NCBI GenBank assembly: GCA_963843975.1
Contig: CAWJMG010000003.1
Span: forward strand, 30,001 to 62,000
DNA: 32,000 bases
DNA from: an uncultured Actinomycetes bacterium
GTDB taxonomy: Bacteria; Actinomycetota; Actinomycetes; S36-B12; CAIYMF01
Direction of reading: 5' to 3'
The notes under the pieces: generated by a model
What the model was told of the DNA's origin: nothing
The model's input: the letters and a program-made list of their open reading frames with translations, nothing else
The model's database searches: none
In this document: positions 8,234-32,000 of the stretch, piece after piece
How the letters are laid out: every line of letters starts with the position of its first letter
How positions within the stretch are numbered: the first letter of the stretch is position 1
Translations under genes and position numbers: made by a program

Positions 8234-8278
8234 GGCAGCAGTCTCCCTGTCGGGGCGGGGGTGCGGAGGGCGAACGAA

Positions 8279-8312: not shown

Positions 8313-8327
8313 TGTCGGTGGTGCGGG

Positions 8328-10216: not shown

Positions 10217-10250
10217 CGTGCACGACGTCGCTGGCTGACCGGGAGGTGCC

Positions 10251-13142: not shown

Positions 13143-13145
13143 CCC

Positions 13146-15533: not shown

Positions 15534-15566
15534 CACGTCCCTGTCGTACGACTCGTAGGGAGAACG

Positions 15567-16548: not shown

Positions 16549-16564
16549 CCTGCCCGGAGGATCC

Positions 16565-17354
16565 ATGTTCAGCTCCATCGCCGGCCGCTCCGTCATCGTG
16601 ACGGGTGGCACCAAGGGCATCGGCAAGGGCATCGCGCGCGTGTTCGCGCGGGCTGGCGCCAACGTCCTCATCACCGGGCGCAACGAGGCGGACGCCGCCG
16701 CCTGCGCAGCCGAGCTCACCGGGCTCGGTGGCGGCGAGGTCACGTACGTCCTCGGCGACGTCGCGTCGGCCGAGTCGTGCGCGGCGATGGCCGCGACCGC
16801 GGTCGAGCGCAACGGCGGCATCGACGTGCTCTGCGCCAACGCCGGGATCTTCCCCGACTCCAAGCTTCGCGACGATGACCGAGGCCGACATGGACCTCGT
16901 CTTCGGCACCAACATCAAGGGCACGCTGCTGTCGGTGCAGGCGTGCATGCCGGCGCTCACGGCGTCGGGCCGCGGGCGCGTCATCCTCACCTCGTCGATC
17001 ACCGGGCCGATCACCGGCTACCCGGGCTGGTCGCACTACGGCGCGAGCAAGGCCGCACAGCTGGGCTTCATGCGTACGGCGGCCATCGAGCTCGCGCCGC
17101 GCAAGATCACCGTGAACGCAGTGCTCCCGGGCAACGTCGCGACCGAGGGCCTGGCCGAGCTCGGCCCGGAGTACCGCGCGTCGATGGAGGCGAGCATCCC
17201 GTTGAGGGCGCTGGGCGAGGTCGACGACATCGGCAACGCCGCCCTGTTCTTCGCCACCGACGAGGCGGCGTACATCACCGGGCAGGCGCTCGCGGTCGAC
17301 GGCGGCCAGGTGCTGCCCGAGTCGCTCGCGGCGCTCGAGGCCGCAGCCGACTAG
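16565..17354 (+). pseudogene. Short-chain dehydrogenase/reductase (RMM aminopropanol dehydrogenase position); frame broken by one extra nucleotide near 16865-16869
   Basis: [11 protein letters not shown]...[10 protein letters not shown] is followed by nonsense. The next frame (tail of ORF 16605..17354) reads [18 protein letters not shown]...YGASKAA...[10 protein letters not shown]. Span is 790 nt (3n+1). Confidence 0.85.
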
Positions 17355-17396
17355 ACGACGTACCGTGGTCGCACCGACACCGCACCGGGGGGTGAG

Positions 17397-18194
17397 ATGA
17401 CCGAGACCGACGCCCTCCTGGGGCCGACGGCCGATGAGGCGCGGCGCAACATCGTCGGCCTCATCACCTCCGGCGCGCTGCGACCAGGTCAGCGCCTCGG
17501 CGCCGAGCGTGATCTCGCCGTGCAGCTCGGCGTCAGCCGGTCGACCCTGCGCGCCGCCCTGGCCTCGCTCGAGCAGGACGGCCTCGTTCGTCGCGTCCCC
17601 GGCCGCGGCGGCGGCACGTTCGTCGCGCGGGAGAAGATCGACCGCGACCTCTCGCGCATCGTCGGCGTGCCCGCGCTCCTGCGCGACCAGGGCTACACCG
17701 CCGGCACCCGCGTCGTGAGCGGTGCGGTCGCGCCCCCCGATCCGGATGCGCGCGCGGCGCTCGAGATGGACGACGACTCGTTCGTCGTCGACCTCGTGCG
17801 CATCCGCCTCGCCGACGGAAGCCCCATCTCGCTCGAGCACGCGCGCCTGCCTGCCGAGCGCTTCCCCGGTCTGCTCGAGCGCCCGCTCGGCGGCTCGCTG
17901 TACCAGCTGCTCGAGAAGGAGTACGGCGTCGGCCCGCACCAGGCCGTGGAGAGGCTCGAGGTCGTGTCGGCATCCGACGACGAGGCACGCGTCCTCGGCG
18001 TCCCGTCCGGCTCGCCCCTGATCTCGATCACGCGCACGACCACCGACTCCGACGGCCGGCCGTTCGAGTACTCGCACGACCTGTTCCGCGCGGACCGCAC
18101 CCGCATCACCGTGCGCACGTACGGAGCACCGGCGGGCGCGGGGATGGACGCGACCCGCGGCCGTCTCGTCGAGGTCCGCGACAACACCGCCTGA
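17397..18194 (+). CDS. GntR-family regulator, HutC-like (winged HTH plus UTRA-type effector domain)
   Basis: 265 aa. ERDLAVQLGVSRSTLRAALASLEQDGLVRRVPGRGGGTFV is a GntR wHTH. The C-terminal half resembles UTRA domains (...PISLEHARLP...YSHDLFRADR). Confidence 0.8.
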   Translation: MTETDALLGPTADEARRNIVGLITSGALRPGQRLGAERDLAVQLGVSRSTLRAALASLEQDGLVRRVPGRGGGTFVAREKIDRDLSRIVGVPALLRDQGYTAGTRVVSGAVAPPDPDARAALEMDDDSFVVDLVRIRLADGSPISLEHARLPAERFPGLLERPLGGSLYQLLEKEYGVGPHQAVERLEVVSASDDEARVLGVPSGSPLISITRTTTDSDGRPFEYSHDLFRADRTRITVRTYGAPAGAGMDATRGRLVEVRDNTA

Positions 18195-18207
18195 CCGGAG
18201 GGTCGTC

Positions 18208-18543
18208 ATGCCGTACGACGAGGTGCTCGCCGACCGCATCCGCGCGCTGCTCGAGACACGCGTTGACGTCGCGGAGAAGAAGATGTTCGGCGGCCTGGCG
18301 TTCCTCGTCGGCGGGCACATGGCTATCGCGGCCAGCGGCGAGGGCGGCGCGCTGGTGCGGGTCGATCCCGCGGAGTCCGACCAGCTGGTCGACACCGATG
18401 GCGCCGAGGTCGCGGTGATGCGCGGCCGGCCCATGACGGGGTGGCTACGGGTGGCCGACGAGCAGCTCGAGTCCGACGACGTGCTTGCGGCGTGGGTGCA
18501 GCGGTCGTCGGCGTACGCCGCGTCGCTGCCACCGAAGGGCTAG
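18208..18543 (+). CDS. TfoX N-terminal-domain protein
   Basis: 111 aa. KKMFGGLAFLVGGHMAIA...MRGRPMTGWLRV is typical of the TfoX_N family. Confidence 0.7.
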   Translation: MPYDEVLADRIRALLETRVDVAEKKMFGGLAFLVGGHMAIAASGEGGALVRVDPAESDQLVDTDGAEVAVMRGRPMTGWLRVADEQLESDDVLAAWVQRSSAYAASLPPKG

Positions 18544-18550
18544 CGGCCGA

Positions 18551-19015
18551 TCAGCCCTGGGCGGTCGGGATGGCGTCGGCGACGGCCGGGGAGATGTCGA
18601 CCAGTGCGTCGGCCTCGGGGGAGTACGCGTCCGGCACGCTGACCTCGATGTTGAGCTCGCGCCCTACCGTGGTGAAGAGGTAGCCGTTCTCGAGCTGCTC
18701 GGGCAGCCAGTCGATGCCGTCGACGGTGACGAGCTGCGAGGTGGGCCCGAGCGCGGCCGGAGTGGGCACGCCGCAGCGGACGACGATCGCGGGGTCTCCC
18801 CAGGCCGACACGAACGAGCTCCTCGGATCGGTGGCCGTCACGGTCTGGCCGACGACCTCGTCCGGGAGGCTGCTCTTGAAGTTCGCGCACGCGTAGGCGC
18901 CCGCCCCCTCGGGGAGCGGGTCGGGCAGGGGTACGGCGAGGCCGCGGGAGCAGCCGGTGAGCGAGAGCAGGACCGCCGCGGCAGCGAGTGCGCTGCCGAC
19001 GTGCCGCCTGCCCAC
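18551..19015 (-). CDS. DUF3515-like secreted lipoprotein
   Basis: Only the 3' 155 codons of ORF 18551..20029 look coding. GTG 19015 opens VGRRHVGSALAAAAVLLSLTGCS (signal peptide plus lipobox), followed by SAWGDPAIVVRCGVPTP...VDGIDW. Sits in the conserved position near thiL. Confidence 0.7.
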   Translation of the reverse strand: MGRRHVGSALAAAAVLLSLTGCSRGLAVPLPDPLPEGAGAYACANFKSSLPDEVVGQTVTATDPRSSFVSAWGDPAIVVRCGVPTPAALGPTSQLVTVDGIDWLPEQLENGYLFTTVGRELNIEVSVPDAYSPEADALVDISPAVADAIPTAQG

Positions 19016-19023
19016 AGCCGGTG

Positions 19024-19260
19024 TCAGAGGTGGACGACGGGGCAGGTGAGGGTACGCGTGATGCCCTCGACCGCCTGGATGCGTGCCACCACGAGCTTGC
19101 CGAGCTCGTCGACGCTGCGCGCCTCGGCGCGCACGATGACGTCGTACGGGCCGGTGACGTCCTCGGCCTGCGTGACGCCCTTGATCTGGGCGATCTCGGC
19201 GGCCACGTGAGCCGCCTTGCCGACCTCGGTCTGGATGAGGATGTAGGCCTGCACCACCAT
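19024..19260 (-). CDS. Small Lrp/AsnC ligand-binding-domain protein (about 78 aa)
   Basis: MVVQAYILIQTEVGKAAHVAAEIAQIKGVTQAEDVTGPYDVIVRAEARSVDELGKLVVARIQAVEGITRTLTCPVV. ATG 19260 was chosen inside the longer 19024..19365 ORF. Confidence 0.8.
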   Translation of the reverse strand: MVVQAYILIQTEVGKAAHVAAEIAQIKGVTQAEDVTGPYDVIVRAEARSVDELGKLVVARIQAVEGITRTLTCPVVHL

Positions 19261-19433
19261 GGTCGTCCTCCTCGGTCGGAATCTGGTGCGGTCGGGGAAG
19301 CGCAACCAGGTCGAGCAGCCCCGTTGAAGTGCGGCCCGGTGTCCGGTAGGACCGCAGGACGACACTATCGCCCGGATGGTGCGGGCGGAGAACGGGTACG
19401 GGACGCTCCCGCCCCGACGTGAAGGAGAACACA

Positions 19434-20531: not shown

Positions 20532-21533
20532 TCAGGCCAGGTAGGTGCCGCTCAGGTAGGACTCCGCGAGCTCGCACGTCTCGGTCGTGAACGGCGCGCC
20601 GAGCTCGCGCGCCTCCTCGGCGTACGAGTGGTGGGAGCCCACCCATCCCACGAGGAGGAGCCGTCGGAACATCACGAGCGTGGGGATGATCCCGACGTCC
20701 GTCGAGGTGAGAGGGCGCAGGGTCTGGTAGCCGGCGAGCCACGGCTGCATCCAGTCGCTGGCGCGGGGGTCGGCCTCCAGGAAGCTGACCGCGGTCGCGA
20801 AGTCGTACAGGAACCACGAGAAGCCGCAGTCGTCGAAGTCGATGACCTTCACCTGGTCACCGTCCACGAGCAGGTTCGTCAGTCGCAGGTCGTTGTGGGC
20901 GAGCCCGAACCGGGCGGGGTCGGTGCCGTACGCCGCCAGCTCGCGGCGGATCTGGTCGTCCACCCGCTGCAGGAGCCGGCGCTCGTCGGCACCCATCCCG
21001 AGCCCGTCCTGCCAGCGACCCCACATGGCCCGGGCGCCCAGCGCGGCGTCGTAGTCGCACGTGTACCTGGTGAAGGTCGAGGGCCGTGCCCAGGCACCAC
21101 CGTGCAGGTGCATGGCTGCGGCGAGCCGGCCGAGGACCTCGAAGCTGGCCTCCAGCCCGCTCTCGGTGCTGGGTGCCGCGCCGTCCATCCAGTCGAAGAG
21201 GACGACGTGGCGGCTGTCGCCGTCCCCGACAGGCAGCGTGGTGAGCCGGCCGCCGTCGCGCCGGCGGATCGCGGTCGGGGGATCGACGACGCCGTCAGCG
21301 CTGAGCGCGTCGAGCCAGAGCAGCTCGGACTCGATCTCCCGGCCGGAGTGGTATCCGGGGCGGTGCACACGCATGGCGGCGACGCGACCGCTGTCGGGAT
21401 CGACCACCTTGTACGTGGTGTTCTCGGACACGTTGATCAACGTGACGTCCGACCGAGGAGACAGCTCGTAGTGCTCCAGCACCGAGCGAGCCACTGAGTC
21501 GAGCGAGGTGATCATGACCTCGGCGCCGTCCAT
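20532..21533 (-). CDS. APH-family (phosphotransferase) kinase, intact paralog of the RMM kinase
   Basis: ATG 21533 (SD GGAGGGGG) opens MDGAEVMITSLD... It shares VSEN.T..., RVHR.GYHS..EIESEL.W..AL, GRWQDGLGMG and NLLVDGD.V.VIDFDDCG.SW.LYD with 15567..16548. Confidence 0.85.
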   Translation of the reverse strand: MDGAEVMITSLDSVARSVLEHYELSPRSDVTLINVSENTTYKVVDPDSGRVAAMRVHRPGYHSGREIESELLWLDALSADGVVDPPTAIRRRDGGRLTTLPVGDGDSRHVVLFDWMDGAAPSTESGLEASFEVLGRLAAAMHLHGGAWARPSTFTRYTCDYDAALGARAMWGRWQDGLGMGADERRLLQRVDDQIRRELAAYGTDPARFGLAHNDLRLTNLLVDGDQVKVIDFDDCGFSWFLYDFATAVSFLEADPRASDWMQPWLAGYQTLRPLTSTDVGIIPTLVMFRRLLLVGWVGSHHSYAEEARELGAPFTTETCELAESYLSGTYLA

Positions 21534-21591
21534 GCTCCCCCTCCGGTCCGCTCGACCACGTGACGTCGTGGCCGTCCTGCTGCGCTGTGGC

Positions 21592-21701
21592 CAAAGGCAC
21601 AAGGACCAAACCATAAGTGACGACGGAGGGAGAGACAAGGTCCGACCGTGTGGTGGCAGTCCTTGCCCGCGGGCACTTACGGGCCTAGGTTTAGACCATT
21701 A
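21592..21701. promoter_or_regulatory. Back-to-back divergent promoter module A (homologous to 27668..27778)
   Basis: Rightward: TTGCCC (21663-21668), 17 nt, TAGGTT (21686-21691), then TAGACCATTA. Leftward, on the minus strand: TTGTCT (21633-21638), 17 nt, TATGGT (21610-21615). Confidence 0.5.
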
Positions 21702-21754
21702 ATCTGCCGGTGGGGCTCGCCTCCACCATCCGTACCCGAGGAAGGGCGGCACCT

Positions 21755-22153
21755 GTGGCCTCGAGCAACACGGACGTCGAGTTCGTCCCACCGAGCGGCT
21801 TCCTCGCCAAGGCTCCCCTGAGCGCCGCCGTGCGGGTGGGCGATCTGGTGCTGGTGTCGGGCCAGATCGGCATCGACGACGCCGGCGTCGCGCTGCGGGG
21901 CATGGCCGAGCAGACGAAGGCCTGCATCGAGGCCGTGGCGGCCGCACTGGCGCCCGTGGGCGGCAGCCTCGCGGACGTGGTCCAGACGCGGGTGTACCTC
22001 ACCGACTTCAGCGGCTACGACGACTACAACCGGGTGTACCGCGAGTACTTCGCCGAGCCCTTCCCGGCCCGTGCCACGGTGGGCACGCCGCAACTCGCTC
22101 TGGGCGCCCAGATCGAGATCGAGGCTGTCGCCGTCCTGCGCCGGGCCGACTGA
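21755..22153 (+). CDS. ridA: RidA/YjgF-family reactive enamine/imine deaminase
   Basis: 132 aa from GTG 21755 (SD GAGGAAGGG). VLVSGQIG...VYLTDFSGYDDYNRVYREYF...PARATVG...GAQIEIEAVAV is typical of RidA. Confidence 0.85.
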   Translation: MASSNTDVEFVPPSGFLAKAPLSAAVRVGDLVLVSGQIGIDDAGVALRGMAEQTKACIEAVAAALAPVGGSLADVVQTRVYLTDFSGYDDYNRVYREYFAEPFPARATVGTPQLALGAQIEIEAVAVLRRAD

Positions 22154-22211
22154 GCCGACTGCCCACGCCTGGCGCTGATCGCTGCAGCCACGTCCGATCG
22201 AAGGAGCACCG

Positions 22212-23243
22212 GTGCCGAGGACCACCCACGTCGACTTCCTGGGACGGTCGGCACGGACCGGCGACTGGGCCGAGCGATCGCGCGGCACGTACACGGTCCT
22301 CGCGGAGGCTCTGGAGCGTGGTCAGTGGGAGGACGCCGACGAGCTCCTCGAGGTGACGTTGCTCGAGGCGGAGGAGCTGCGCGACGTCTACTCGGTGTGG
22401 CCGCAGGCGATCGCCGCATGGCTGACGTCGCAGGGGGTCGACGCCGACCGGCTTGCTGCACGCGTCGCGGAGCTCCGCTCGGTGATCGGGGGCGAGGGCG
22501 CCGGTGACGTGCTCGCCGGCTGGGACCAGTACGTCGACCTCACCCATCGGGCGCAGGCGTTGGTGCGGCAGGCCAGCCCGCGAGCAGTCGTTGCCGTCGA
22601 GGACGCTCGTCGCTCGTGGGAGGCCACGCACGATCGGGGCGTCGACGACGTCTACGGGATGCTCAGCATCGCGGTCGAACTCCTGGGCGAGGAGTGCCTC
22701 CGGGACCTGTGGGACCACCTCATGTCGGACTGGTACGACGACCACGCGCGGAGGCTCGATCCGGCCAACCAGTCGTGGAGGACCTCGAGGGAGCAGCTCG
22801 CGCTGGCGATCACGGACGGCTTCCACGCCCACCTCTCGGGCCGGAACAGGCTCGGGGACATGGAGCTCATCGAGGAACCGGACCGGGTCGGGTTCAGGTT
22901 CGCTCCCTGCGGGTCCGGAGGCCGGGTGCTGCGCGACGATGCGGCCGGTGGCGCACGGCCAGAGGCCCCGTTCGGGTTCGCAGTCACCGAGCGGGCGCAC
23001 CCCTGGGCCTTCGGACTGGTGGGGGTCGGCGCCTACTGCGTCCACTGCTGCCTGCTCAACATGACCGTGCCGGTCGAGCGCATCGGCTTCCCGACGCGCG
23101 TGATCGAGCCGCCCACGTGGCCGGACTCGCGTGAGGGCGGCACCTGCACGTGGTGGGTGTACGACGATCCCGCGTCGGTGCCGGCGGATGTCGTCGGAAG
23201 AGTGTCGGATCCCGGCCGCGCCGAGGACGAGGAGGACGCGTGA
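22212..23243 (+). CDS. Uncharacterised 343-aa protein: helical N-terminal part and Cys/His-rich C-terminal part
   Basis: GTG 22212 follows GAAGGAG, and G/C-rich third positions run throughout. Motifs FAPCGSGGR, YCVHCC and GGTCTWW. Its stop overlaps the next start (GTGA). I recognise no family. Confidence 0.65.
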   Translation: MPRTTHVDFLGRSARTGDWAERSRGTYTVLAEALERGQWEDADELLEVTLLEAEELRDVYSVWPQAIAAWLTSQGVDADRLAARVAELRSVIGGEGAGDVLAGWDQYVDLTHRAQALVRQASPRAVVAVEDARRSWEATHDRGVDDVYGMLSIAVELLGEECLRDLWDHLMSDWYDDHARRLDPANQSWRTSREQLALAITDGFHAHLSGRNRLGDMELIEEPDRVGFRFAPCGSGGRVLRDDAAGGARPEAPFGFAVTERAHPWAFGLVGVGAYCVHCCLLNMTVPVERIGFPTRVIEPPTWPDSREGGTCTWWVYDDPASVPADVVGRVSDPGRAEDEEDA

Positions 23244-24556
23244 GCCGTTCGCGAGTGCCGCTGACACAGCTCGAGGTGCCTGACTACGACCTCGGTCTGC
23301 GGGGGAAGCTGCTGCGCGCCGACAAGGTGGCCAAGGCAGGCGGCAGCGCCTTCTGCACCATCATCTACGGGCTCGATCCCGAGGACGGGGTCGCAGACAC
23401 CCCCCTGTCCTCCGCAGCCAACGGCTACCCCGACGCGTTCGCCGCCGTCGACGAGTCCACGCGGGTCCCGCTCTCCTGGCGGGCGGGGACCGACGCCGTG
23501 ATCGCCGACCTGGTCGACGGGTCGGGCACGCCGCTCGAGGAGTCGCCGCGGGTCGCCCTCGCCCGCGTCATCACCGCTTTCAGGAGCCGCGGGCTCGAAC
23601 CGGTGCTCGGTTTCGAGTACGAGTGCCACGTCCTGCACGCTGATGACGACGTGCTGAGCCGCGGCGACTACGGCGCCGTGCGCCCGCTCGGGCGCGAGGA
23701 GAACGCCTACAGCCTGAGCCGGCTGGTGGAGTCGGGGCCGCTGTTCGCGGAGTTCGTCGACCGGATGGACTCCATCGGTGTCCCCGTGGAGGCCTGCCAC
23801 TCGGAGCTCGGTCCCGGCTTCTTCGAGTACGCGCTCGCACCTCTGCCCGCACTGCGAGCCGCCGATGCCGCGGTGCGTAGCCGCCTCTACTTCCGGGAGC
23901 TGTGCGCAGAGCGGGGCCTCCACGCCACGTTCATGGCCAAGCTGCGGATCGAGACGTCCGGGGCCGGCGGGCACGTGCACCAGAGCGTCCTGCGGGACGG
24001 GATGAACGCGTTCGCCGGGGACTCGGACGGGCTGTCGCCCCTCGGCCGGAACTACCTCGGCGGGCTGCTGGACGCCATGGCCGACTCGACGGTGCTGTTC
24101 AACCCGTTCCTCAACTCCTACAAGCGGATCAGTGCCGGGTTCTTCGTCGCCGAGCAGGCGTCGTGGGGCCGGGACGACCGCAACGCGGCCTGCCGCGTGA
24201 TCACCGGACCGGGCTTGGAGGCCTCGCGGATCGAGCACCGGCGGCCGGGGGCGGATGCGAATCCCTACCTTGCGGCGGCGGGCATGCTCGCGGGCGGACT
24301 GCACGGGATCGAGCGGGAGATCGTGCCTGGCCCGCCGGTGTCCGGCGGCTCGTCGAGCACCGCACCGGCAGTCCCGAACTCCCTCGAATCCGCGCTGGCG
24401 GCCTTCCGGTCGTCCACGGTCCTCGCCGACAAGCTGGGCACCCGCCTGGTCGAGTCGTACGCCGCCACGCGGCAGGCTGAGCTGGATTCGTTCACGCGGT
24501 GGTGGGCCACGACGGTGACCGACTGGGAGAAGCGCCGGTACATGGAGCACCTCTAG
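23240..24556 (+). CDS. Glutamine-synthetase-like enzyme (gamma-glutamyl-amine synthetase candidate), copy 1
   Basis: 438 aa from GTG 23240 (SD GAGGAGGA). GAGGHVHQS, NSYKRI and RIEHRRPGADANPYL are GS catalytic-domain motifs. Confidence 0.8.
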   Translation: MSRSRVPLTQLEVPDYDLGLRGKLLRADKVAKAGGSAFCTIIYGLDPEDGVADTPLSSAANGYPDAFAAVDESTRVPLSWRAGTDAVIADLVDGSGTPLEESPRVALARVITAFRSRGLEPVLGFEYECHVLHADDDVLSRGDYGAVRPLGREENAYSLSRLVESGPLFAEFVDRMDSIGVPVEACHSELGPGFFEYALAPLPALRAADAAVRSRLYFRELCAERGLHATFMAKLRIETSGAGGHVHQSVLRDGMNAFAGDSDGLSPLGRNYLGGLLDAMADSTVLFNPFLNSYKRISAGFFVAEQASWGRDDRNAACRVITGPGLEASRIEHRRPGADANPYLAAAGMLAGGLHGIEREIVPGPPVSGGSSSTAPAVPNSLESALAAFRSSTVLADKLGTRLVESYAATRQAELDSFTRWWATTVTDWEKRRYMEHL

Positions 24557-24586
24557 GCGCTCCGCGACGACGAACGGATCGAGACC

Positions 24587-25294
24587 ATGACACGTCGACC
24601 CATCGTGGGGATCACCGGCTTCCACGGCCACTGGACGTACGCGCACGGCCAGGACCAGTTCACGGGCGTCGAGCGGGTCTACACGGACACGATCCTGCGC
24701 TCCGGAGGGATGCCCGTGCTGCTCATGGCGGGCATCGACGCGATCGACGAGGCGTTGGACCTCGTCGACGCGCTGCTGCTGACGGGTGGTGCCGACGTCG
24801 ATCCGCTGCACTACGGCCATGATCGCGCGCTGCACACCGGTGACTCAGACCCCGAGCGCGACGAGTTCGAGATCGCCCTGGTCCGGGGTTCCGTGCAACG
24901 CGACCTGCCCACGCTGGCGATCTGCCGGGGCCACCAGCTGGTGAACGTCTGCCTGGGCGGCCACCTCCATCAGCATGTGGAGGGGCATGAAGGCATCCAG
25001 TCCCCGGGGGCCGGCGTCCACGAGGTGACGGTCGTGCAGGGGAGCCGCCTGCACGACGTCCTCGGCACCACGTCGGTCTGGGCCAACTCCTTGCACCACC
25101 AGGCCGTCGCCGAGCCGGGCGACGGGCTCACCGCCGTCGCCACTGCTCCCGACGGTGTCGTCGAAGCGACGGAGCACCAGGCTCTGCCGCTCCTGACCGT
25201 GCAGTGGCATCCCGAACGCCAGCACGACTCGGACGTGTACGGGACGCTCGTCGACTGGCTCCTCGAGCAGGCTCGCAGCCGCATGGGCGGGTGA
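24587..25294 (+). CDS. Class-I glutamine amidotransferase-like gamma-glutamyl hydrolase (PuuD/peptidase C26 family)
   Basis: 235 aa. LLLTGGADVDP, the catalytic AICRGHQ, and VQWHPE. Confidence 0.8.
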   Translation: MTRRPIVGITGFHGHWTYAHGQDQFTGVERVYTDTILRSGGMPVLLMAGIDAIDEALDLVDALLLTGGADVDPLHYGHDRALHTGDSDPERDEFEIALVRGSVQRDLPTLAICRGHQLVNVCLGGHLHQHVEGHEGIQSPGAGVHEVTVVQGSRLHDVLGTTSVWANSLHHQAVAEPGDGLTAVATAPDGVVEATEHQALPLLTVQWHPERQHDSDVYGTLVDWLLEQARSRMGG

Positions 25295-25347
25295 CGGCCG
25301 CAGTCCGTGTCCTAGTGGTCGGAGCGGTGCCGCCTGGCACGGCTGCT

Positions 25348-26730
25348 TCAGGCGCGCTCGTGGTACCTCTGGAGCTCCCAGTGGGTGACGGGCCCGAGCT
25401 GGAACGCGTCGACCTCGCTCTGGGCCGAGCGCAGGAGATGCTCGAAGACCTCGTCCCCGAAGCTCTCGCGAGCGAGGGCTGACGCGGCGAACCTCGCGAC
25501 CGACGCCATCATCGTGCCGGTCATGTGCTCCAGGGCGCCGTCCTCCTCGGCGTTCCCCTCGTGGAACGGCGGTGTCGGCCGAGAGTCACGGATGCCCTGC
25601 AACCCCGCTGCGATGACCGCGCTGTAGGCGTAGTACGGGTTCGCATCAGCACCAGGGACCCTGTGCTCCAGGTGGAGAGTCGGCCCGTGTCCGACGATGC
25701 GGAACGCGCACGACCTGTTGTCGTCGCCGAGGGCGATCGTGGTCCCCGCGAACTGGTTGGTGCGATAGCGGCGGTAGGAGTTCACCGTGGGCGCGAACAG
25801 GACTCCGAGCTCCAGCACATGGTCGATCTGGGCTGCGACGAACGAGCCGAAGGCCGGTGCGATGCCCTTCCTGTCCGAACCGAGCGGCACTGCGCCGGCC
25901 CCGTCCCAGAGGCTCACGTGGATGTGGCAGGAGGAACCCACGTCGTCGACGTCCGGCTTCGCCATGAACGTGACGGTGACGTGGTTGCGCCGCGCGAGAT
26001 CCTTGACCCCGTACTTGAAGAGCACGTGCCTGTCGGCCATCTCCAACGGCTCGCAGTAGGTGAGGGTGATCTCCTGCTGGCCTCGCCCCCACTCAGGCTT
26101 GGCAGCCTCGACGGGCACGCCGAACTCAGGCATCTGCGTGCGGATCTGACCCAGGAACCAGTCGTCCCTCGCAGCCTGGATGAGCTGGTAGTCGGAGCGG
26201 TTGTCGGTGATGCGCGGAAGGTTCGCGTAGCCCGCCTCACGAGCGGCGTCCGGCTCGATCGTGTAGGCGTAGAACTCCAGCTCCGACGCGAGCTTGAGGG
26301 ACAGGTCGAGCTCGGCCAGCCGTGCGATCTGTCGCCGCAGGATCGTCCTCGGCGCCACGTCGATCAGGGAGTCGCCGTGCGCCTGGTAGGCGTCGCAGAT
26401 GACCAGGGCGCAGCGAGGCTCCCAGGGTATCCGTCGGAGCGTCGGCAGGTCCGGGACGAGCCGGATGTCCCGGTACCCGTTGGTCGCGTTGGCGATGGGC
26501 AGGTCGACCGGGGTCAGCTCCAGGTCAAAGGCGAAGATCACCCCGCTGACATGGATCCCGTCGCCCTCAAGACATAGCGTGCGGAAGCTGTCGACGGGCA
26601 GGCGCTTGCCCACCAGCCGGCCGTACGGATCGGGCGCCGCGCACACGACGGTGTCGATCTCTCCTTGCGCGGCGAGCTCCTCGAGCTCCTCGACGGACAG
26701 CGTGCGGCGGCCTCCGTGGTTCACGGTCAC
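25348..26730 (-). CDS. Glutamine-synthetase-like enzyme, copy 2
   Basis: GTG 26730 (or 26724) follows GAGGAGAG. GSSCHIHVSLW, NSYRRY and LEHRVPGADANPYY. The upstream 64 codons of ORF 25348..26922 were judged non-coding. Confidence 0.8.
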   Translation of the reverse strand: MTVNHGGRRTLSVEELEELAAQGEIDTVVCAAPDPYGRLVGKRLPVDSFRTLCLEGDGIHVSGVIFAFDLELTPVDLPIANATNGYRDIRLVPDLPTLRRIPWEPRCALVICDAYQAHGDSLIDVAPRTILRRQIARLAELDLSLKLASELEFYAYTIEPDAAREAGYANLPRITDNRSDYQLIQAARDDWFLGQIRTQMPEFGVPVEAAKPEWGRGQQEITLTYCEPLEMADRHVLFKYGVKDLARRNHVTVTFMAKPDVDDVGSSCHIHVSLWDGAGAVPLGSDRKGIAPAFGSFVAAQIDHVLELGVLFAPTVNSYRRYRTNQFAGTTIALGDDNRSCAFRIVGHGPTLHLEHRVPGADANPYYAYSAVIAAGLQGIRDSRPTPPFHEGNAEEDGALEHMTGTMMASVARFAASALARESFGDEVFEHLLRSAQSEVDAFQLGPVTHWELQRYHERA

Positions 26731-26788
26731 GGGCTCTCCTCGGGGCTGGTCTGGTGCAGCTGCTCGTCCTCCACGTCGTCTGGCCGGC

Positions 26789-27568
26789 TCAGGTGAGGGC
26801 GAACCCGCCGTCGACGACGAGATCGGCGCCCGTGACGTAGGCCGCCTGGTCGCTGAGGAGGAACGCCACGCAGGCCGCGACCTCAGACGGGTGCGCGAAG
26901 CGCCCGAGCGGCACGCGCCCATCGAGCGCCGGCGGCAGGGTGCCGATCTCGCCGTGGGCGTCGGCCATGGGTGTGGCCACGAAGCCCGGCGCCACGGAGT
27001 TCACCCGGACTCCTGCCGGGGCCCAGGCCCGTGCCGCGCTCCGCGTGAGGGAGGTCAGTGCTGCCTTGGAGGCGGCGTAGTGCGGGTTGGGATCAGGGTC
27101 GGAGAGCGCCACGACCCGGTGCGCCTCGACGGACGTGACGTTCACGACGGCGCCGCCGCCGGCGGCGCGCAGCCGAGGACCCAGGAGGTCGAGCAGCGAG
27201 TACGCGGCAAGGAGGTTCACCTCGAGGGTGCTCTGCCACATCGACCGCGGCACCCCGTCGAAGCCATGGTCGGGGAGCACCCCCGCGCAGTTGACGACGT
27301 ACGACACCGGTCCGTCCGTCAGCGCCGAGTCGAGCGCGTTCTGCAGCTGTTCGGTGTCGCGGACGTCGGCCTCAGCGTGGACGAGGCTCCCCGGGGCGTC
27401 GGCGGGACGGCCGCCCAAGGGGCTCCGCGAGACTCCCACCACGTGCAGCCCGCCGTCCGCCAAGGTGGTCGTGATGGCCGCGCCGATGCCGCTCGACGCG
27501 CCGGTGACGACCGCCCGCCCGCCGGCGAACGTGAGGGCGAGACGCGAGACCGGGGTCACCGGGCGCAC
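26789..27568 (-). CDS. Short-chain dehydrogenase/reductase
   Basis: VVTGASSGIGAA, NCAG and YAASKAA. The start is uncertain: GTG 27568 or 27559. The ORF-track start at 27670 lies in lower-GC3 sequence that overlaps the promoter module. Confidence 0.75.
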   Translation of the reverse strand: MRPVTPVSRLALTFAGGRAVVTGASSGIGAAITTTLADGGLHVVGVSRSPLGGRPADAPGSLVHAEADVRDTEQLQNALDSALTDGPVSYVVNCAGVLPDHGFDGVPRSMWQSTLEVNLLAAYSLLDLLGPRLRAAGGGAVVNVTSVEAHRVVALSDPDPNPHYAASKAALTSLTRSAARAWAPAGVRVNSVAPGFVATPMADAHGEIGTLPPALDGRVPLGRFAHPSEVAACVAFLLSDQAAYVTGADLVVDGGFALT

Positions 27569-27667
27569 CCGAGTCCACGGGCCTGCCGAGCAGTTCGGTA
27601 GCGCATGTCGATCGACCTCCGACCTGGCTGGTCCGCGGCCCGGATGCTCGTCGGCGACCCGGTCCAT

Positions 27668-27778
27668 CAAAGGAACAATAGATGAACCATAAGTGCGATC
27701 GGCGACCGGGACAAGGGCGACGCCACGGCGTCCACCACCTTGCTCAAGGGGTGATTCGGGCCTACCTTTAGACCATTA
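27668..27778. promoter_or_regulatory. Back-to-back divergent promoter module B (homologous to 21592..21701)
   Basis: Rightward: TTGCTC (27740-27745), 17 nt, TACCTT (27763-27768), then TAGACCATTA. Leftward, on the minus strand: TTGTCC (27709-27714), 17 nt, TATGGT (27686-27691). Confidence 0.5.
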
Positions 27779-27845
27779 GAGGCGCACCGGCCCCGTGGTC
27801 GCAACGCCGATACATCGCGGATGGCCGAGCGCTGATGGAGGACTC

Positions 27846-29210
27846 GTGACGGACATGCAGGTGATGCGGGACAGCTGGTCGATGGACGAGCAGGAGCTGC
27901 GCGACGCACTGCCCCCGATGGAGTGGGACTACGCCACCGCGCTGCATGACCGCGAGACGTACCTGACGCCGGTCCTGAAGACGTTCCAGGCGACGACGAA
28001 GCCGATCCTCATCAAGCGCGGCGAGGGTCAGTACGTCTTCGACGCCGACGGCAACCGCTACATCGACACCGTTGCCATGAACCAGGCGATCAGCGCCGGG
28101 TACCGGAGCCCGTACGTGATGGCCTCGGTGCGCCAGCAGCTCGAGGACATGCAGCACTGCTCGACCATGTGGATGCACCCCGCGCCGGCCTCGCTCGCCA
28201 AGGCCCTGATCGACAAGATGCCCGAAGGCGACTGGGTCGTGCACTTCCTCAGCAGCGGCACCGAAGCGGTGGAGCTCGCGGTCCTCATGGCGCGCAACTA
28301 CACCGGCCGCCACACAGTCCTCGGGCTTCGATCGGCCTATCACGGAGGGGTCAGCTCCACCGCCAACGCGCTGACGTCGATCAGCCGGTTCCACCACAAG
28401 CTGCCGTCCGCGTCCGGTGTGATCCACGTGGCCAACCCCGACCAGTACCGCGGCATCCACGGACCGGGCGTGGAGCCCTACCTCGCCGAGTTCAAGGCGA
28501 CCATCGCCTCGTCCACCAACGGCGAGTTCGCGGCGTACATCTACGAGCCGATCCAGGGGTACGGCGGCGTCATCCCCATGCCGACCGAGTACGTCCAGCG
28601 GTCGGTGCAGCTGGCGCGGGAGCACGGCGCGCTCGTCATCGCGGACGAGGTCCAGACGGCGATCGGTCGCACGGGTTCCCACTTCTACGGCTTCGTCGAG
28701 CATGGCGTCGTGCCCGACATGGTCGTCATGGCGAAGGGCCTCGGAAACGGGTTCCCCTTGTCCGCCGTCGTGGTCCGCCGCGAGATCGCGGAGGGGATGA
28801 CGCACGGCAAGGCATTCATGAGCACCATGGGGTCGAACCCCACCTGTGTCGCTGCCGGACGCGGGGTGATCGCGGCGCTCGACCACGGTGGCCTGCAAGA
28901 GAACGCGCGACAGGTCGGCGAGACGGCGATCGGCATGTTCCGCGAGCTGCAGTCGCGCTACGAGGTGGTCGGCGACGTCCGCGGCAAGGGCCTCATGCTC
29001 GGCATGGAGCTGGTCAAGGATCGCGACACCAAGGAGCCGGCCACCGAGCTCGTCAACATGATCGCGGACGAGATCTCGGACTCGGTGATCGTCACCAAGG
29101 CTGGCCAGTTCGGGAACGTCCTGCGCCTGGTCCCACCGCTCTGCTTGACAGCCGACGATGCGGCCGTGGTCGTCGAACGACTCGACGCCATCCTGCGCCG
29201 CCAGGCCTGA
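27846..29210 (+). CDS. Class-III aminotransferase, AGXT2-like subgroup (transaminase or phospho-lyase)
   Basis: GTG 27846 follows GGAGGA. ADEVQTAIGRTG and VMAKGLGNGFPLSAV (PLP lysine) resemble AGXT2 and the AGXT2L phospho-lyases. Confidence 0.8.
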   Translation: MTDMQVMRDSWSMDEQELRDALPPMEWDYATALHDRETYLTPVLKTFQATTKPILIKRGEGQYVFDADGNRYIDTVAMNQAISAGYRSPYVMASVRQQLEDMQHCSTMWMHPAPASLAKALIDKMPEGDWVVHFLSSGTEAVELAVLMARNYTGRHTVLGLRSAYHGGVSSTANALTSISRFHHKLPSASGVIHVANPDQYRGIHGPGVEPYLAEFKATIASSTNGEFAAYIYEPIQGYGGVIPMPTEYVQRSVQLAREHGALVIADEVQTAIGRTGSHFYGFVEHGVVPDMVVMAKGLGNGFPLSAVVVRREIAEGMTHGKAFMSTMGSNPTCVAAGRGVIAALDHGGLQENARQVGETAIGMFRELQSRYEVVGDVRGKGLMLGMELVKDRDTKEPATELVNMIADEISDSVIVTKAGQFGNVLRLVPPLCLTADDAAVVVERLDAILRRQA

Positions 29211-29222
29211 GGCCCCAGCCGG

Positions 29223-30749
29223 GTGAACGTCGGGAGCTTCCTCACCAAGGCTGCGCGGGTGCACCCGCACCGACCGGCGGTGACAGACGACAGGGTCAGC
29301 CTCACCTACGAGCAGATGGATGCGACGGCAGAGCGGGTCGCGTCGTACCTCAGCGAGCGTGGGCTGGCCCCGGGCGACCGCGTCGTGCTGTTCATGGCCA
29401 ACCGCGCGGAGTACCTCACGCTGCTGTTCGGCATCTTCAAGGGCGGATTCGTCGCGGTGCCCGTCAACGCGAAGCTGCACGTGTCCGAGGTCGCGTTCAT
29501 CATCGAGCACTGCGCCGCGGGGGCCGTGCTGGTGGATGCGAAGAGCTCGTCGCTGGTCAGGGGGCACGTGGGCGGCGCCGCGGTCGTGCACGTCGACGAC
29601 GAGGAGCTCGACTGGCTCCGGCAGGGGGCCCAGCGCACGGGCTCCTTCGTCGACCACGCCGTCCGGCCGGACGATCCTGCCTGGATCTTCTACACGTCTG
29701 GGACGACCGGGCGTCCCAAGGGGGCCACCCTCACCCATCGCAACCTGCGGGTGAGCGCCATGAACGCGCTCGCCGACATGTGCGACTTCCAGCCCGAGGA
29801 CGTGGTGCTCCACGTGGCGCCGCTCTCGCACGGGTCCGGGCTCTACGCATTGCCGGCGGTCGCCCGTGCTTGCTCGAACGTGATCCACGTGGGCGGCTCG
29901 TTCCAGGCCGACGACGTCCTCGAGAGCATGCGACGCCTGGGTGTCACCGTCGTCGCCTTCATGGCGCCGACGATGATCCACATGCTGCTGGAGAGCGACC
30001 TTGCCGCGCCGCCTCTGGTGCGACGGATCATGTATGGCGGAGCGCCCATCGACGCAGGCCTCGTCGCGAGGGCCATCGACCGTTTCGGACCGGTCTTCGT
30101 GCAGCTCTACGGCATGGGGGAGTCGCCGATGACGATCACCTACCTCCGGCCGGCGGACCATCGTGGGCACACGGTCACGTCCGCCGGGATACCTCGGACC
30201 GACGTGGAGGTCCAGGTGCTCGACGACGTCGGCAACTCGGTGGCCGACGGCGTCGAAGGCGAGATCTGCGTGCGTGGGGACATCGTGATGGCGGGCTACT
30301 GGAACGACCCGGACGCCACGGCTCGGGCGCTCCGCGACGGATGGCTGCACACAGGAGACGTGGGACGCTTCGAGTCAGGGTTCCTCTTCCTGCTGTCGCG
30401 CCGGAACGACGTGATCATCTCCGGAGGAAGCAACATCTACCCCCGCGAGGTCGAGGAGGCCCTGATGCAGCATCCGGCCGTCACCGATGCCTGCGTGTTC
30501 GGGGTCCCAGACGACAAGTGGGGGGAGTCCGTCGTGGCGGCCGTCGTCGTGGACCAGCCCACGACCGTGGACAGCCTGCTCGACACCTGCCGCGAGCACA
30601 TCGCCAGCTTCAAGAAGCCGAGCGCGGTCGTGTTCGTCGACGCGTTGCCCGTCAGCGCCTACGGCAAGGTCCTGCGGCGCGAGGTACGCGACGGCTACCT
30701 CCGGGGCCTCGCCGAGTCCGTGTCCGCGACGGCTGGGGAGCGGCCGTGA
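29223..30749 (+). CDS. AMP-dependent acyl-CoA synthetase/ligase (class-I adenylate-forming enzyme)
   Basis: 508 aa. YTSGTTGRPKGA, YGMGES, HTGDVG and the C-terminal FKKPSAVVFVDALPVSAYGKVLR. Confidence 0.85.
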   Translation: MNVGSFLTKAARVHPHRPAVTDDRVSLTYEQMDATAERVASYLSERGLAPGDRVVLFMANRAEYLTLLFGIFKGGFVAVPVNAKLHVSEVAFIIEHCAAGAVLVDAKSSSLVRGHVGGAAVVHVDDEELDWLRQGAQRTGSFVDHAVRPDDPAWIFYTSGTTGRPKGATLTHRNLRVSAMNALADMCDFQPEDVVLHVAPLSHGSGLYALPAVARACSNVIHVGGSFQADDVLESMRRLGVTVVAFMAPTMIHMLLESDLAAPPLVRRIMYGGAPIDAGLVARAIDRFGPVFVQLYGMGESPMTITYLRPADHRGHTVTSAGIPRTDVEVQVLDDVGNSVADGVEGEICVRGDIVMAGYWNDPDATARALRDGWLHTGDVGRFESGFLFLLSRRNDVIISGGSNIYPREVEEALMQHPAVTDACVFGVPDDKWGESVVAAVVVDQPTTVDSLLDTCREHIASFKKPSAVVFVDALPVSAYGKVLRREVRDGYLRGLAESVSATAGERP

Positions 30750-31483
30750 CCGCGCCCACGGCCGTCGTGACGGGCGCGGCCGGCGGAATCGGCCTGGCGG
30801 TGTGCCGCCGCCTCGCCGCTGACGGGTACGAGGTGCACGGGCTCGACGTCCGGCCCATGCCCGAAGGGGTCGCGCCGGGAGTGGTCGGCGCCGTGGTGGA
30901 CCTGTCCGACGCGTCCGCGCCGCGCCGGTTCTTCGCCGAGGAGTTCGACGGGCGCCCGCTCACGACTCTGGTCAACGCCGCCGGGGTTGCCTTCTTCGGG
31001 CGGGACGAGTCGGCGCTCGAGGCTGACGAGTCGCTGTGGTCGCGAACCCTGCAGATCAACCTGGACGGCCCTCGACGGATGTCCGCAGCCGCGCTGCCCG
31101 CCCTCCGGCGCGCGACCGGAGCGTCGATGGTCCACGTGGCGTCGATCGCGGGGCTCCGGAACATGGACTCGCCGATGGATGCTTACCAGGTGTCGAAGAC
31201 GGCTGTCGTCGCACTGTCGCGAAGCTTCGCGGTCCAGCTCGGGCCGGAGGGCATCCGCTCCAACACCGTGTGCCCAGGGGCGGTTCTGACGCCGATGATC
31301 TCCCACCTCTACGACGAGGATCCCGCGCGGCGGACGCGTATGGAGGCGAAGACGCCCCTGCGGCGACTGGGGGCACCGGACGACATCGCGGAAGCCGTCG
31401 CGTGGCTGGCGTCGTCGGCCGCGAGCTTCGTCACCGGTGCGGATCTCGTCGTCGACGGCGGCTGGTCGGTCGTCACTCCGTAG
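30746..31483 (+). CDS. Short-chain dehydrogenase/reductase
   Basis: These are the last 246 codons of the artefactual 28169..31483 ORF. GTG 30746 overlaps the ligase stop (GTGA). VVTGAAGGIGLA, NAAG and YQVSKTA. Confidence 0.8.
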   Translation: MTAPTAVVTGAAGGIGLAVCRRLAADGYEVHGLDVRPMPEGVAPGVVGAVVDLSDASAPRRFFAEEFDGRPLTTLVNAAGVAFFGRDESALEADESLWSRTLQINLDGPRRMSAAALPALRRATGASMVHVASIAGLRNMDSPMDAYQVSKTAVVALSRSFAVQLGPEGIRSNTVCPGAVLTPMISHLYDEDPARRTRMEAKTPLRRLGAPDDIAEAVAWLASSAASFVTGADLVVDGGWSVVTP

Positions 31484-31515
31484 TTCATGCCCGACCCGGC
31501 GTCCACGTGGCCGGT

Positions 31516-31533
31516 TAGGGTGAGGGGACCCTA
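31516..31533. promoter_or_regulatory. Palindrome TAGGGT-N6-ACCCTA upstream of the FadR-type GntR gene (candidate autoregulatory operator overlapping a -10-like hexamer)
   Basis: TAGGGT (31516-31521) and ACCCTA (31528-31533) are exact reverse complements. The core GGT-N6-ACC fits the general GntR GT-Nx-AC pattern. It lies 15 nt upstream of GTG 31548. Confidence 0.3.
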
Positions 31534-31547
31534 GCGAGGAGCACTCG

Positions 31548-32000
31548 GTGGCACAGACCGCTTCGTCGTACGGCCTGGAGCCGGTGCGCGTGCTCGCCAC
31601 GCACGAGCTGGTGCTCGACCAGATCCGGACGGCGATCAACCTGGGCCGGTTCAGGCCGGGCGACAAGCTCCCCTCCGAGCGCGAGCTGGCAGCGATGCTG
31701 CGGGTGTCGCGCACCACGGTGCGTGAGGCGGTTGCGCTGCTCGAGAGCGAAGGGATCGTGGCCGTGCGCCGCGGACGCGGCGGCGGGATCGTGGTCGTGG
31801 ACCCGGCTCGATCGCGGGCTGAGCTCCGCCGGCTGCTGCGCTCACAGCGAGACGAGCTGCTCGACGTCTTCGACTTCCGCGTGGCCGTCGAGTCGTCCGC
31901 CGCCCGTCTCGCGGCGGCGCGACGGACCAAGCAGGACCTCGAGGCGATGACGCGGCACGTGCAGGCAATGGCGGAGATCATCGAGGATCGGGTCCGCGTC
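31548..32000 (+). CDS. GntR-family regulator, FadR/FCD-like; 3' end outside window
   Basis: Absent from the ORF track because no stop is reached. GTG 31548 (SD GCGAGGAG) opens VAQTASSYGLEP...PGDKLPSERELAAMLRVSRTTVREAVALLESEGIVAVRRGRGGG..., followed by the helical ...DVFDFRVAVESSAARLAA... The frame stays open to 32000. Confidence 0.8.
   Translation, partial: MAQTASSYGLEPVRVLATHELVLDQIRTAINLGRFRPGDKLPSERELAAMLRVSRTTVREAVALLESEGIVAVRRGRGGGIVVVDPARSRAELRRLLRSQRDELLDVFDFRVAVESSAARLAAARRTKQDLEAMTRHVQAMAEIIEDRVRV

Follow-up and report, generated by a model that had tools for sequence, protein, structure and literature searches.

The described systems closest to the locus examined here use either phosphorylation and elimination or gamma-glutamylation. 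In the RMM/Aaum/Aut system of Mycobacterium smegmatis and Rhodococcus, a short-chain dehydrogenase/reductase (SDR) converts aminoacetone to (S)-1-amino-2-propanol, a kinase of the aminoglycoside phosphotransferase (APH) family produces the O-phosphate, a class-III pyridoxal phosphate (PLP)-dependent phospho-lyase releases propionaldehyde, and an aldehyde dehydrogenase forms propionyl-CoA. Phosphorylation also creates a leaving group in the levulinate (lva) system of Pseudomonas putida, in which an APH-family kinase, encoded in one operon with an SDR and a CoA ligase, phosphorylates 4-hydroxyvaleryl-CoA. Gamma-glutamylation is used by the Ipu pathway of Pseudomonas sp. KIE171 and Arthrobacter aurescens TC1, where IpuC converts isopropylamine to gamma-glutamyl-isopropylamide, a P450 yields gamma-glutamyl-L-alaninol, and the hydrolase IpuF splits this gamma-glutamyl amide to free L-alaninol, which is then oxidised (PMC6776027, PMC1713258). 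GlnA4 of Streptomyces coelicolor is a gamma-glutamylethanolamide synthetase (PMC6529630). Here we analyse a block of 11 genes (B01 to B11, positions 20532-32000) that contains gene families of both kinds. It lies in a 32-kb stretch of DNA, hereafter the window, from an uncultured Actinomycetes bacterium (assembly GCA_963843975.1, contig CAWJMG010000003.1).

The block combines, as a mosaic, two modules that are conserved independently of each other; they are interleaved in the window and do not form one ancestral operon. Module 1 comprises B03-B07, B10 and B11, and module 2 comprises B01, B02, B08 and B09 (Table 1). We consider the odds somewhat in favour of the block being one regulon of the FCD-type GntR regulator B11, built from these two modules, for the catabolism of small 1,2-amino alcohols, aminoketones or amines.

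Two conserved modules in one gene block

A search anchored on B03, an uncharacterised protein, gave 80 genome loci (53 actinobacterial-type and 27 alphaproteobacterial), which were annotated by BLAST with the window proteins. The results showed that B03 and the glutamine synthetase (GS)-like ligase GS-a form the core of module 1 in about 80 loci of Actinomycetota and Alphaproteobacteria, with a second ligase (GS-b), a C26 hydrolase, SDRs and a GntR/FCD regulator as further members. Among the 53 actinobacterial-type loci, the B03 homolog is accompanied by GS-a in 48 (after the B03 homolog), by GS-b in 48 (orthologs of 54-60% identity, after GS-a), by a B07-like SDR in 47 (44-64%, directly upstream of the B03 homolog), by a B10-like SDR in 49 (54-73%, after GS-b), by the GntR/FCD regulator in 43 (B11 orthologs, 47-64%) and by a C26 hydrolase in 27. 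Homologs of the RMM permease (about 42% identity) and of the RMM SDR (58-63%) stand with it in 40 and 29 of these loci, respectively. The usual actinobacterial order is permease, SDR, GntR (minus strand), SDR, AllG, SDR, B03 homolog, GS-a, GS-b, esterase, SDR, flavin monooxygenase and C26 hydrolase. The alphaproteobacterial minimal set, the B03 homolog plus GS-a, was present in 25 of 27 loci, usually with SDRs; one of the alphaproteobacterial loci (L059) also has a YjgF/RidA-family gene and a zinc-dependent alcohol dehydrogenase gene. Orthologs of the C26 hydrolase B05 (55-65% identity) were found in L004, L005 and L092. Nearly all B03-anchored loci lack genes for the kinase, RidA, B08 and the CoA ligase.

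The module 1 loci of Rhodococcus and Mycobacterium (L002, L003, L007, L013 and others) carry AllG/DUF1116 (PF06545), an HSL-type esterase, an FMO/Baeyer-Villiger-like monooxygenase, a glutaminase and an acetyl-CoA-synthetase-like gene, none of which is in the window; these extra genes suggest a ketone-to-ester branch. Three other loci with the actinomycete module (L006, L052 and L056) come from metagenome-assembled genomes (MAGs) titled Bifidobacterium breve or Bifidobacteriaceae, at 61-67% G+C, and these bins are probably mislabelled.

Module 2 emerged from a search anchored on B08 and is a strict unit. In every neighbourhood with enough flank, the genes for RidA, the B08-type enzyme (class-III aminotransferase family, AT) and the CoA ligase are contiguous and in this order, hereafter the triad, and a B01-type kinase adjoins them, usually divergently, with L084 as the single exception. 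The B08 orthogroup is tight (68-100% identity, mostly 453 aa, then an abrupt fall to at most 55%), and the orthologs of RidA, CoA ligase and kinase share 57-66%, 56-63% and 57-64% identity, respectively, with the window proteins. B01 orthologs stand beside RidA-B08 in the window, L066, L085, L087, L089, L090, L096-L098, L102, L105, L107 and JGI contig 39108.

At least five independent lineages combine modules 1 and 2, at some places in one operon. In Maritimibacter (L066), whose AT is 77% identical to B08, a Liv-type ABC transporter, the B03 homolog, GS-a, thiolase, SDR, GntR/FCD, CoA ligase, AT and RidA are followed, next to RidA, by APH and a glutamine amidotransferase (GATase). In L085/L094, one operon of APH, GATase, GS and permease diverges from the triad, and thiolase, GS-a, the B03 homolog and an ABC transporter adjoin. 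The L092 arrangement is entirely co-directional: GntR/FCD, then RidA, AT, CoA ligase, SDR, permease, B03 homolog, GS-a, C26 and SDR. GntR/FCD also precedes APH, SDR and the triad in L097/L098, and this regulator gene was recorded directly upstream of RidA-AT-CoA ligase in L092, L093, L097 and L098. Both modules are further present in L089 and JGI contig 39108. Thiolase genes recur beside the B03 homolog and GS-a or near the triad (L066, L085 and L090); the window has none.

The recurrence of these families side by side in unrelated lineages shows that the block is no chance juxtaposition. That it should be a neighbourhood of metabolic genes without a common function is hardly credible, even though SDR and CoA-ligase families are ubiquitous and three or four unrelated genes (TfoX_N-like, no-family and ThiL-like) separate the block from the neighbouring RMM locus. 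Against it stand the recurrence of the same set across phyla with orthologs of 57-77% identity, the 4-nt overlaps of the B03 stop with the B04 start and of B09 with B10, and a duplicated regulatory region that is confined to the two divergent promoters of the block.

A preliminary description of this DNA, made from the sequence, had read the block as a candidate pathway that combines two chemistries under one regulatory scheme. The comparison of loci backs this reading in large part, once the assignment of genes to modules is corrected. The gene families that it named are all present in the block according to Pfam and NCBIfam, its list having left out only the regulator B11, and the gene neighbourhoods bear out the co-occurrence of these families, which recur together in distant lineages. 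It had also paired the acyl-CoA ligase with an SDR. The ligase does have fixed partners, those of the triad, but the SDR B10 belongs to module 1 and is no partner of the ligase, since its orthologs follow GS-b in about 49 of the 53 actinobacterial loci.

Gene layout and predicted enzymes

The window has about 71% G+C and is actinomycete-type DNA. Genes were picked by third-position GC (GC3) frame analysis, and families were assigned with Pfam and NCBIfam; the 11 genes of the block are arranged in four transcription units (Table 1). A contig of a second assembly of the same organism (L001, Logan ERR12037365), 99.97% identical to the window, shows B11 at its full length of 244 aa with GntR and FCD domains. 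On L001 the CoA-ligase gene B09 is split into two open reading frames (ORFs; 8239-8765) by two indels; the window copy is intact.

Table 1. Coordinates of the gene block, its regulatory regions and neighbouring features in the window
Feature	Position (strand)	Assignment	Evidence or remark
RMM2 locus	1-18200	RMM2-type microcompartment locus	
AldDH and shell genes	11567-13748	aldehyde dehydrogenase and shell proteins of the RMM2 locus	
RMM kinase	15567-16601	APH kinase of the RMM2 locus	split: homology in frame 3 to 16322, in frame 1 from 16348
RMM SDR	16605-17354	SDR of the RMM2 locus	split: homology in frame 2 to 16870, in frame 3 from 16845
Intervening ORFs	18208-19422	TfoX_N-like ORF and one or two no-family ORFs	between RMM regulator and ThiL-like gene; coding frame switches several times
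B01	20532-21533 (-)	APH-family kinase	PF01636 E 4e-24; start per L001 gene call and sequence
Region 1	21534-21754	divergent promoter/operator region	
Region 1, box A	21609-21619		AACCATAAGTG
Region 1, inverted repeat	21636-21665		CAAGG/CCTTG
Region 1, imperfect palindrome	21682-21697		GGCCTAGGTTTAGACC
B02	21755-22153 (+)	RidA-type enamine/imine deaminase	PF01042 E 3e-28
B03	22212-23243 (+)	uncharacterised Cys/His-rich protein, 343 aa	no Pfam/NCBIfam match
B04	23240-24556 (+)	GS-like ligase a (GS-a), putative gamma-glutamyl-amine ligase	Gln-synt_C E 4e-79
B05	24587-25294 (+)	Peptidase_C26 (PuuD-type), predicted gamma-glutamyl amide hydrolase	PF07722 E 2e-57
B06	25348-26730 (-)	GS-like ligase b (GS-b)	Gln-synt_C E 1e-73
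B07	26789-27568 (-)	SDR oxidoreductase	adh_short_C2 E 5e-51
Region 2	27569-27845	divergent promoter/operator region	
Region 2, box A	27685-27695		
Region 2, palindrome	27759-27774		GGCCTACCTTTAGACC
B08	27846-29210 (+)	AGXT2L-like class-III PLP enzyme, predicted amino-alcohol-phosphate phospho-lyase	PF00202 E 8e-82
B09	29223-30749 (+)	AMP-forming acyl-CoA ligase	AMP-binding (E 5e-82) and AMP-binding_C
B10	30746-31483 (+)	SDR oxidoreductase	NCBIfam SDR models
B11	31548-32000 (+)	GntR/FCD regulator, 5' part	gene end about 282 nt beyond window

B04 is predicted to be translationally coupled to B03 across their overlap, and the catalytic motifs are intact in the kinase, RidA, the C26 hydrolase, both GS-like ligases and the PLP enzyme. 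A Pfam scan of the block found no aldehyde dehydrogenase and no bacterial microcompartment (BMC) shell gene, as the preliminary description had said; both are in the RMM2 locus. Scans for RNA families (Rfam, whole window) and for sigma-70 promoters and terminators (within the block) were negative.

The best PDB match of the kinase B01 is 6EF6 (E 7e-91, 308 bits, full length), which the search output labels only as 'aminoglycoside phosphotransferase'. We take 6EF6 to be the M. smegmatis (S)-1-amino-2-propanol kinase, consistent with a reference cited in PMC8007038. B01 carries the motifs HNDLRLTN and IDFDD and is a true paralog of W15, the kinase of the RMM locus, to which it is 48% identical over 253 aa. 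B01-type kinases form a separate orthogroup, with 57-64% identity within the group and 47-49% to W15. The RidA protein B02 keeps the catalytic Arg in a PARATV motif and scores 93 bits on TIGR00004, slightly under the cutoff of 106.

The PLP enzyme B08, with the lysine motif MAKGLG, has its best PDB match in the human ethanolamine-phosphate phospho-lyase ETNPPL (6TOR, E 2e-70), followed by an alanine/serine racemase (E 1e-63). Its best NCBIfam matches are the C-terminal aminotransferase halves of the fusion families PRK06148 and PRK06149 (E 5e-99 and 4e-91). These are kinase-aminotransferase fusions of about 1000 aa, the N-terminal halves of which match B01. With W08, the PLP enzyme of the RMM locus, B08 shares only 27% identity, and it falls in a different clade; true orthologs of W08 (57-81% identity) occur separately in L052, L087 and L089. 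The fusion ('Rosetta-stone') link and the fixed neighbourhood with kinase and RidA genes favour a kinase/phospho-lyase pair for B01 and B08. These data agree with the families that the preliminary description had assigned to its two chemistries, as well as with its association of RidA with a phospho-lyase, given that RidA invariably lies directly in front of the B08-type enzyme elsewhere. The CoA ligase B09 is generic and FadD-like: it reaches no equivalog level in NCBIfam, and its best PDB matches are feruloyl- and fatty-acyl-CoA synthetases (E 2e-79), with no relative of known substrate.

B03, which is an obligate neighbour of GS-a, is probably the most novel component of the block. Its 164 homologs are all unnamed or 'hypothetical' and come from Rhodococcus, Mycobacterium/Mycolicibacterium, Gordonia, Nocardioides, Pseudonocardia and many MAGs, the closest among the GTDB representatives (57% identity) being in Longivirga; the family makes up 679 clusters at 50% identity among 1.84e9 representatives. 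The motifs DGFHAHL, PCGSGGR, YCVHCC ((C)xxCxxCC) and CTWW are invariant. An AlphaFold2 model (pLDDT 90, pTM 0.89) consists of a long helical bundle and a small beta/Cys-rich domain, and Foldseek gave no PDB match at E<=0.001 (best TM-score about 0.2). B03 is probably a metal- or iron-sulfur-binding enzyme that acts with GS-a. Many family members (P0241-P0390) are about 245 aa long and span only the C-terminal two thirds, and several of 440-550 aa show 2-4 matched stretches and may be tandem copies. A Pfam scan of the long relatives for fusions found a single case, P0320 (688 aa), with a partial Gln-synt_C piece; this is weak evidence, as it may be a read-through gene call.

The two GS-like ligases share 30% identity and both keep the GS catalytic motifs. 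They score far under the NCBIfam cutoffs for true GS, PuuA and GmaS, and on the GGputSyn model NF045547 (180 bits for B04 and 170 for B06 vs the cutoff of 650) the match is at the superfamily level, GS-like only. Their best PDB matches are 5DM3 for B04 (E 2e-53) and 11zs and 5DM3 for B06 (E 2e-85 and 4e-73). No named substrate accompanies 5DM3 or 11zs in the output, and the PDB and NCBIfam searches gave no relative with a known substrate for either ligase. B05 matches PF07722 over its full length and has the Cys/His motifs ICRGHQ and QWHPE, and it scores 90 bits on the PuuD equivalog model NF008471 (cutoff 266).

The combination of GS-like ligases, a C26 hydrolase and a class-III aminotransferase resembles PuuA/PuuD/PuuE and raises the question of a Puu/Pau-like polyamine or diamine pathway. 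In such a pathway, the ligases would tag one amino group, B08 would be an omega-aminotransferase in the role of PuuE/SpuC, the SDRs would replace an aldehyde dehydrogenase, the C26 hydrolase would free the amino acid, the CoA ligase would activate the acid, and the kinase would be unrelated or regulatory. The JGI name of the B08 orthologs (alanine-glyoxylate/beta-aminoisobutyrate transaminase) fits this, as do the transaminase models that match B08 strongly, such as that of the gamma-aminobutyrate aminotransferase (GABA-AT; E 2e-72). We nevertheless regard such a pathway as rather improbable: the GGputSyn, PuuD and GABA-AT equivalogs all stay far under their cutoffs (GABA-AT, 244 bits vs 507), a PuuB-type oxidase and an aldehyde dehydrogenase are absent, and B08 has a phospho-lyase as its nearest solved relative and occurs in nearly all cases alongside the aminopropanol-kinase paralog and RidA.

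Regulatory regions and the neighbouring RMM locus

The two divergent promoter regions of the block are homologous, with 73% column identity and a box spacing of 81 vs 82 nt. Common to both are box A, a CAAGG-N20-CCTTG inverted repeat and the imperfect palindrome GGCCTAnnTTTAGACC followed by ATTA, in a shared architecture of about 110 nt that ends in GGCCTA-N4-TAGACC. The window has just two copies of the sequence TTTAGACCATTA (0.05 expected), and in 82 related loci, which are phylogenetically non-independent, TTTAGACC was found 51 times (5.5 +/- 1.8 expected). TTAGACC-type sites precede the permease, follow the B10-like SDR and lie in the gap that separates GntR/FCD from the first SDR, and in module 2 loci they lie between RidA and APH (L066) or between GntR and RidA (L092/L093); L089 carries the full palindrome GGTCTAATAATCAGACC. 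This distribution is what would be expected of the operator of the conserved FCD regulator, for which GGCCTA-N4-TAGACC/TTAGACC is a candidate. Given these shared cis-elements, a single regulon over all four transcription units appears supported, in agreement with the one regulatory scheme that the preliminary description had put forward.

Following the classification of PMC4207490, the left part of the window is an RMM2-type microcompartment locus. Its genes encode a permease, a class-III aminotransferase, an aldehyde dehydrogenase (AldDH), the shell proteins, a kinase of the APH family, an SDR and a regulator of the GntR/UTRA type. On the opposite strand are an HbpS/GlcG-like gene and the genes for a fused large and medium diol dehydratase subunit and its reactivase, and the far left end has genes for a Cys/Met-PLP enzyme and for Ddl. 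The AldDH and shell genes are 7-9 kb upstream of the block, and TfoX_N-like, no-family and ThiL-like genes lie between the RMM locus and the block. Two of the RMM genes, those for the kinase and the SDR, are broken across reading frames (Table 1), through either assembly indels or real pseudogenization. If the kinase frameshift is real, B01 is the only intact gene of the aminopropanol-kinase family at the locus.

The neighbourhood of block and microcompartment, to which the preliminary description had drawn attention, is replicated in alphaproteobacteria. In L087, L088 and L089, which are Albidovulum-type, as in the window, module 2 adjoins RMM-like AT-AldDH-shell operons. In these three loci the operons are under a DeoR regulator and have no kinase of their own in view. 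The sole kinase close by is of the B01 type, sharing 57-61% identity with B01 and 47-49% with the RMM kinase; next to it is a homolog of the RMM SDR (53-57%). Module 1, for its part, adjoins RMM genes in L052 that are 72-81% identical to those of the window. The RMM-SDR homolog of the mycobacterial and rhodococcal module 1 loci has its best PDB matches in 6CI8/6CI9 (E 5e-83), presumably the RMM 1-amino-2-propanol dehydrogenase. A W15-like kinase and an RMM-SDR homolog sit with GntR/FCD, the B03 homolog and GS-a at L071/L079, so the Albidovulum-type gene sets are cross-wired.

A predicted pathway and its described relatives

From the gene content, the families, the linkage and the shared cis-elements we infer a set of reactions, their order and a class of substrates. 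The substrates would be aminoacetone- or aminopropanol-like, because homologs of the RMM SDR and the RMM permease accompany module 1; candidates are aminoacetone, 1-amino-2-propanol or compounds of the alaninol type. In module 1, a GS-like ligase would use ATP to put glutamate on the amine nitrogen and so form a gamma-glutamyl amide, GS-a working with the Cys/His-rich B03, probably a metalloenzyme. The SDRs could interconvert hydroxyl and carbonyl groups of the N-protected intermediate, and the C26 hydrolase B05 would then strip off the glutamate. In module 2, B01 would phosphorylate the hydroxyl vicinal to the free amine, B08 would eliminate phosphate and ammonia, and RidA would hydrolyse the released enamine or imine to an aldehyde or ketone. 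Aldehyde oxidation would take place outside the block, probably in the adjacent RMM microcompartment, possibly by its AldDH, or else through an enzyme encoded at another place in the genome, and the CoA ligase B09 would activate the derived acid. By analogy with the Ipu and then the RMM pathway, the preferred serial order would be to glutamylate, modify, deglutamylate, phosphorylate and eliminate; a bifunctional substrate, of which one amine is masked and the other eliminated, would equally explain the shared operons. We tentatively propose, at rather less than even confidence, that gamma-glutamyl protection and kinase/phospho-lyase elimination act on the same molecule, sequentially or simultaneously (e.g., on a hydroxy-diamine), with B03 as the obligate partner of a GS-like enzyme and with the pathway feeding or bypassing the RMM BMC.

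Several observations weigh against the reading of the block as one regulon built from two modules. Module 2 is missing from about 75 of the 80 module 1 loci and occurs without a nearby B03 homolog or GS-a in L084, L087 and L090, and in Albidovulum the two modules lie at separate places on one contig. The modules occur separately, and each can therefore work alone, which would also suit independent pathways for different amines that share a regulator or a neighbourhood and exchange no intermediates, for instance kinase and phospho-lyase for compounds like 1-amino-2-propanol and gamma-glutamylation for another substrate. We judge such parallel routes unlikely, considering that both chemistries are found in single operons (L085 and L092) and that the modules are interleaved in the window under a duplicated promoter region. 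An APH-linked GATase of the alphaproteobacterial loci, considered as a B05 ortholog, was rejected, since it shows no significant pairwise similarity to B05 outside the active-site motif and is of the PRK07053 type. In addition, B08 could be a genuine aminotransferase, the block holds no oxygenase to make the hydroxyl as in the Ipu pathway, L085-L088 have no TTAGACC element (L087 having a DeoR regulator), and we infer co-expression of the block from cis-elements only. Finally, the aldehyde-to-acid step that would account for the CoA ligase is missing from the block, and the recurrent thiolase of L066, L085 and L090 hints at 3-oxoacyl-CoA chemistry instead.

The recurrent thiolase, together with the invariant AT-CoA ligase pair, would suit a route over CoA esters, for which the Lva kinase offers a precedent. 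Here the CoA ligase would act first, on an amino or hydroxy acid, the acyl-CoA would then be the substrate of B08, acting either as a transaminase of beta-aminoacyl-CoA or, on a phosphorylated hydroxyacyl-CoA, as a lyase, and a thiolase would come last. Such a route seems quite improbable, as B01 is very near to a small-molecule kinase (6EF6) that we assume to act on an amino alcohol, the block lacks an acyl-CoA dehydrogenase and an LvaB/LvaC-like gene, and the window lacks a thiolase.

If the proposed coupling of gamma-glutamylation to phosphorylation and elimination is true, it represents an undescribed architecture for small amines of the kind often present in soils, fresh waters and the sea. 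It would give a first functional context to the widespread B03 family, which has neither annotation nor a structural relative in the PDB, and would assign a function to the RidA-AT-CoA ligase triad and to bacterial proteins related to the mammalian AGXT2L phospho-lyases. It would also bear on which peripheral enzymes supply the RMM/Aaum microcompartments and on how the missing cofactor recycling is covered, a question raised in PMC4207490. Since the culturable bacteria Longivirga aurantiaca, Mycolicibacterium vaccae, Rhodococcus koreensis and Pseudonocardia asaccharolytica are carriers, the pathway question is directly testable. Literature searches retrieved no description of the gene combination, the triad or the B03 family, in line with the statement of the preliminary description that no described operon matches.

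Among the known systems, RMM is linked to the block both in logic and in place: B01 is a close paralog of its kinase and would serve the same phosphorylation-elimination logic, RMM-type loci adjoin the block in two phyla, and module 1 is accompanied by homologs of the permease and the SDR of RMM. The block differs in that it has no RMM-type PLP enzyme, shell genes or AldDH, adds RidA, a CoA ligase and the whole gamma-glutamyl module, and has a GntR regulator of the FCD rather than the UTRA type. The Ipu pathway shares with it a GS-like ligase and an amidotransferase-type hydrolase that frees an amino alcohol, and is the precedent for the proposed serial order. It was rejected as a match, since a Pfam scan found no P450, ferredoxin or reductase domains in the block, where B03 is the only candidate for a redox step; the block moreover has two GS-like genes along with B03, and a proposed kinase/phospho-lyase pair where Ipu uses alcohol and aldehyde dehydrogenases.

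The polyamine pathways Puu of E. coli and Pau of Pseudomonas and the GlnA2-GlnA3-GlnA4 system of S. coelicolor likewise combine a GS-like ligase with a C26 hydrolase and oxidise N-protected intermediates, but the block has no equivalog-level match to PuuA, PuuD or GABA-AT, and neither the PuuB oxidase nor the PuuC aldehyde dehydrogenase. None of the described gamma-glutamylation systems has an obligate B03 partner. The mammalian hydroxylysine kinase AGPHD1 and the phospho-lyases AGXT2L1/AGXT2L2, like the PRK06148/PRK06149 fusions, pair an APH-family kinase with an AGXT2L-like PLP enzyme, whereas in the block the two genes are separate, divergent and tied to RidA and a CoA ligase. The lva operon resembles the block in its APH-family kinase, SDR and CoA ligase, but it acts on CoA esters without a PLP enzyme or nitrogen chemistry, and LvaB and LvaC are not in the block. 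Overall, judged by its genes, the block appears to combine the logic of RMM/Aaum, of the Ipu/Puu type and of AGXT2L/hydroxylysine kinase while being a member of none of them.

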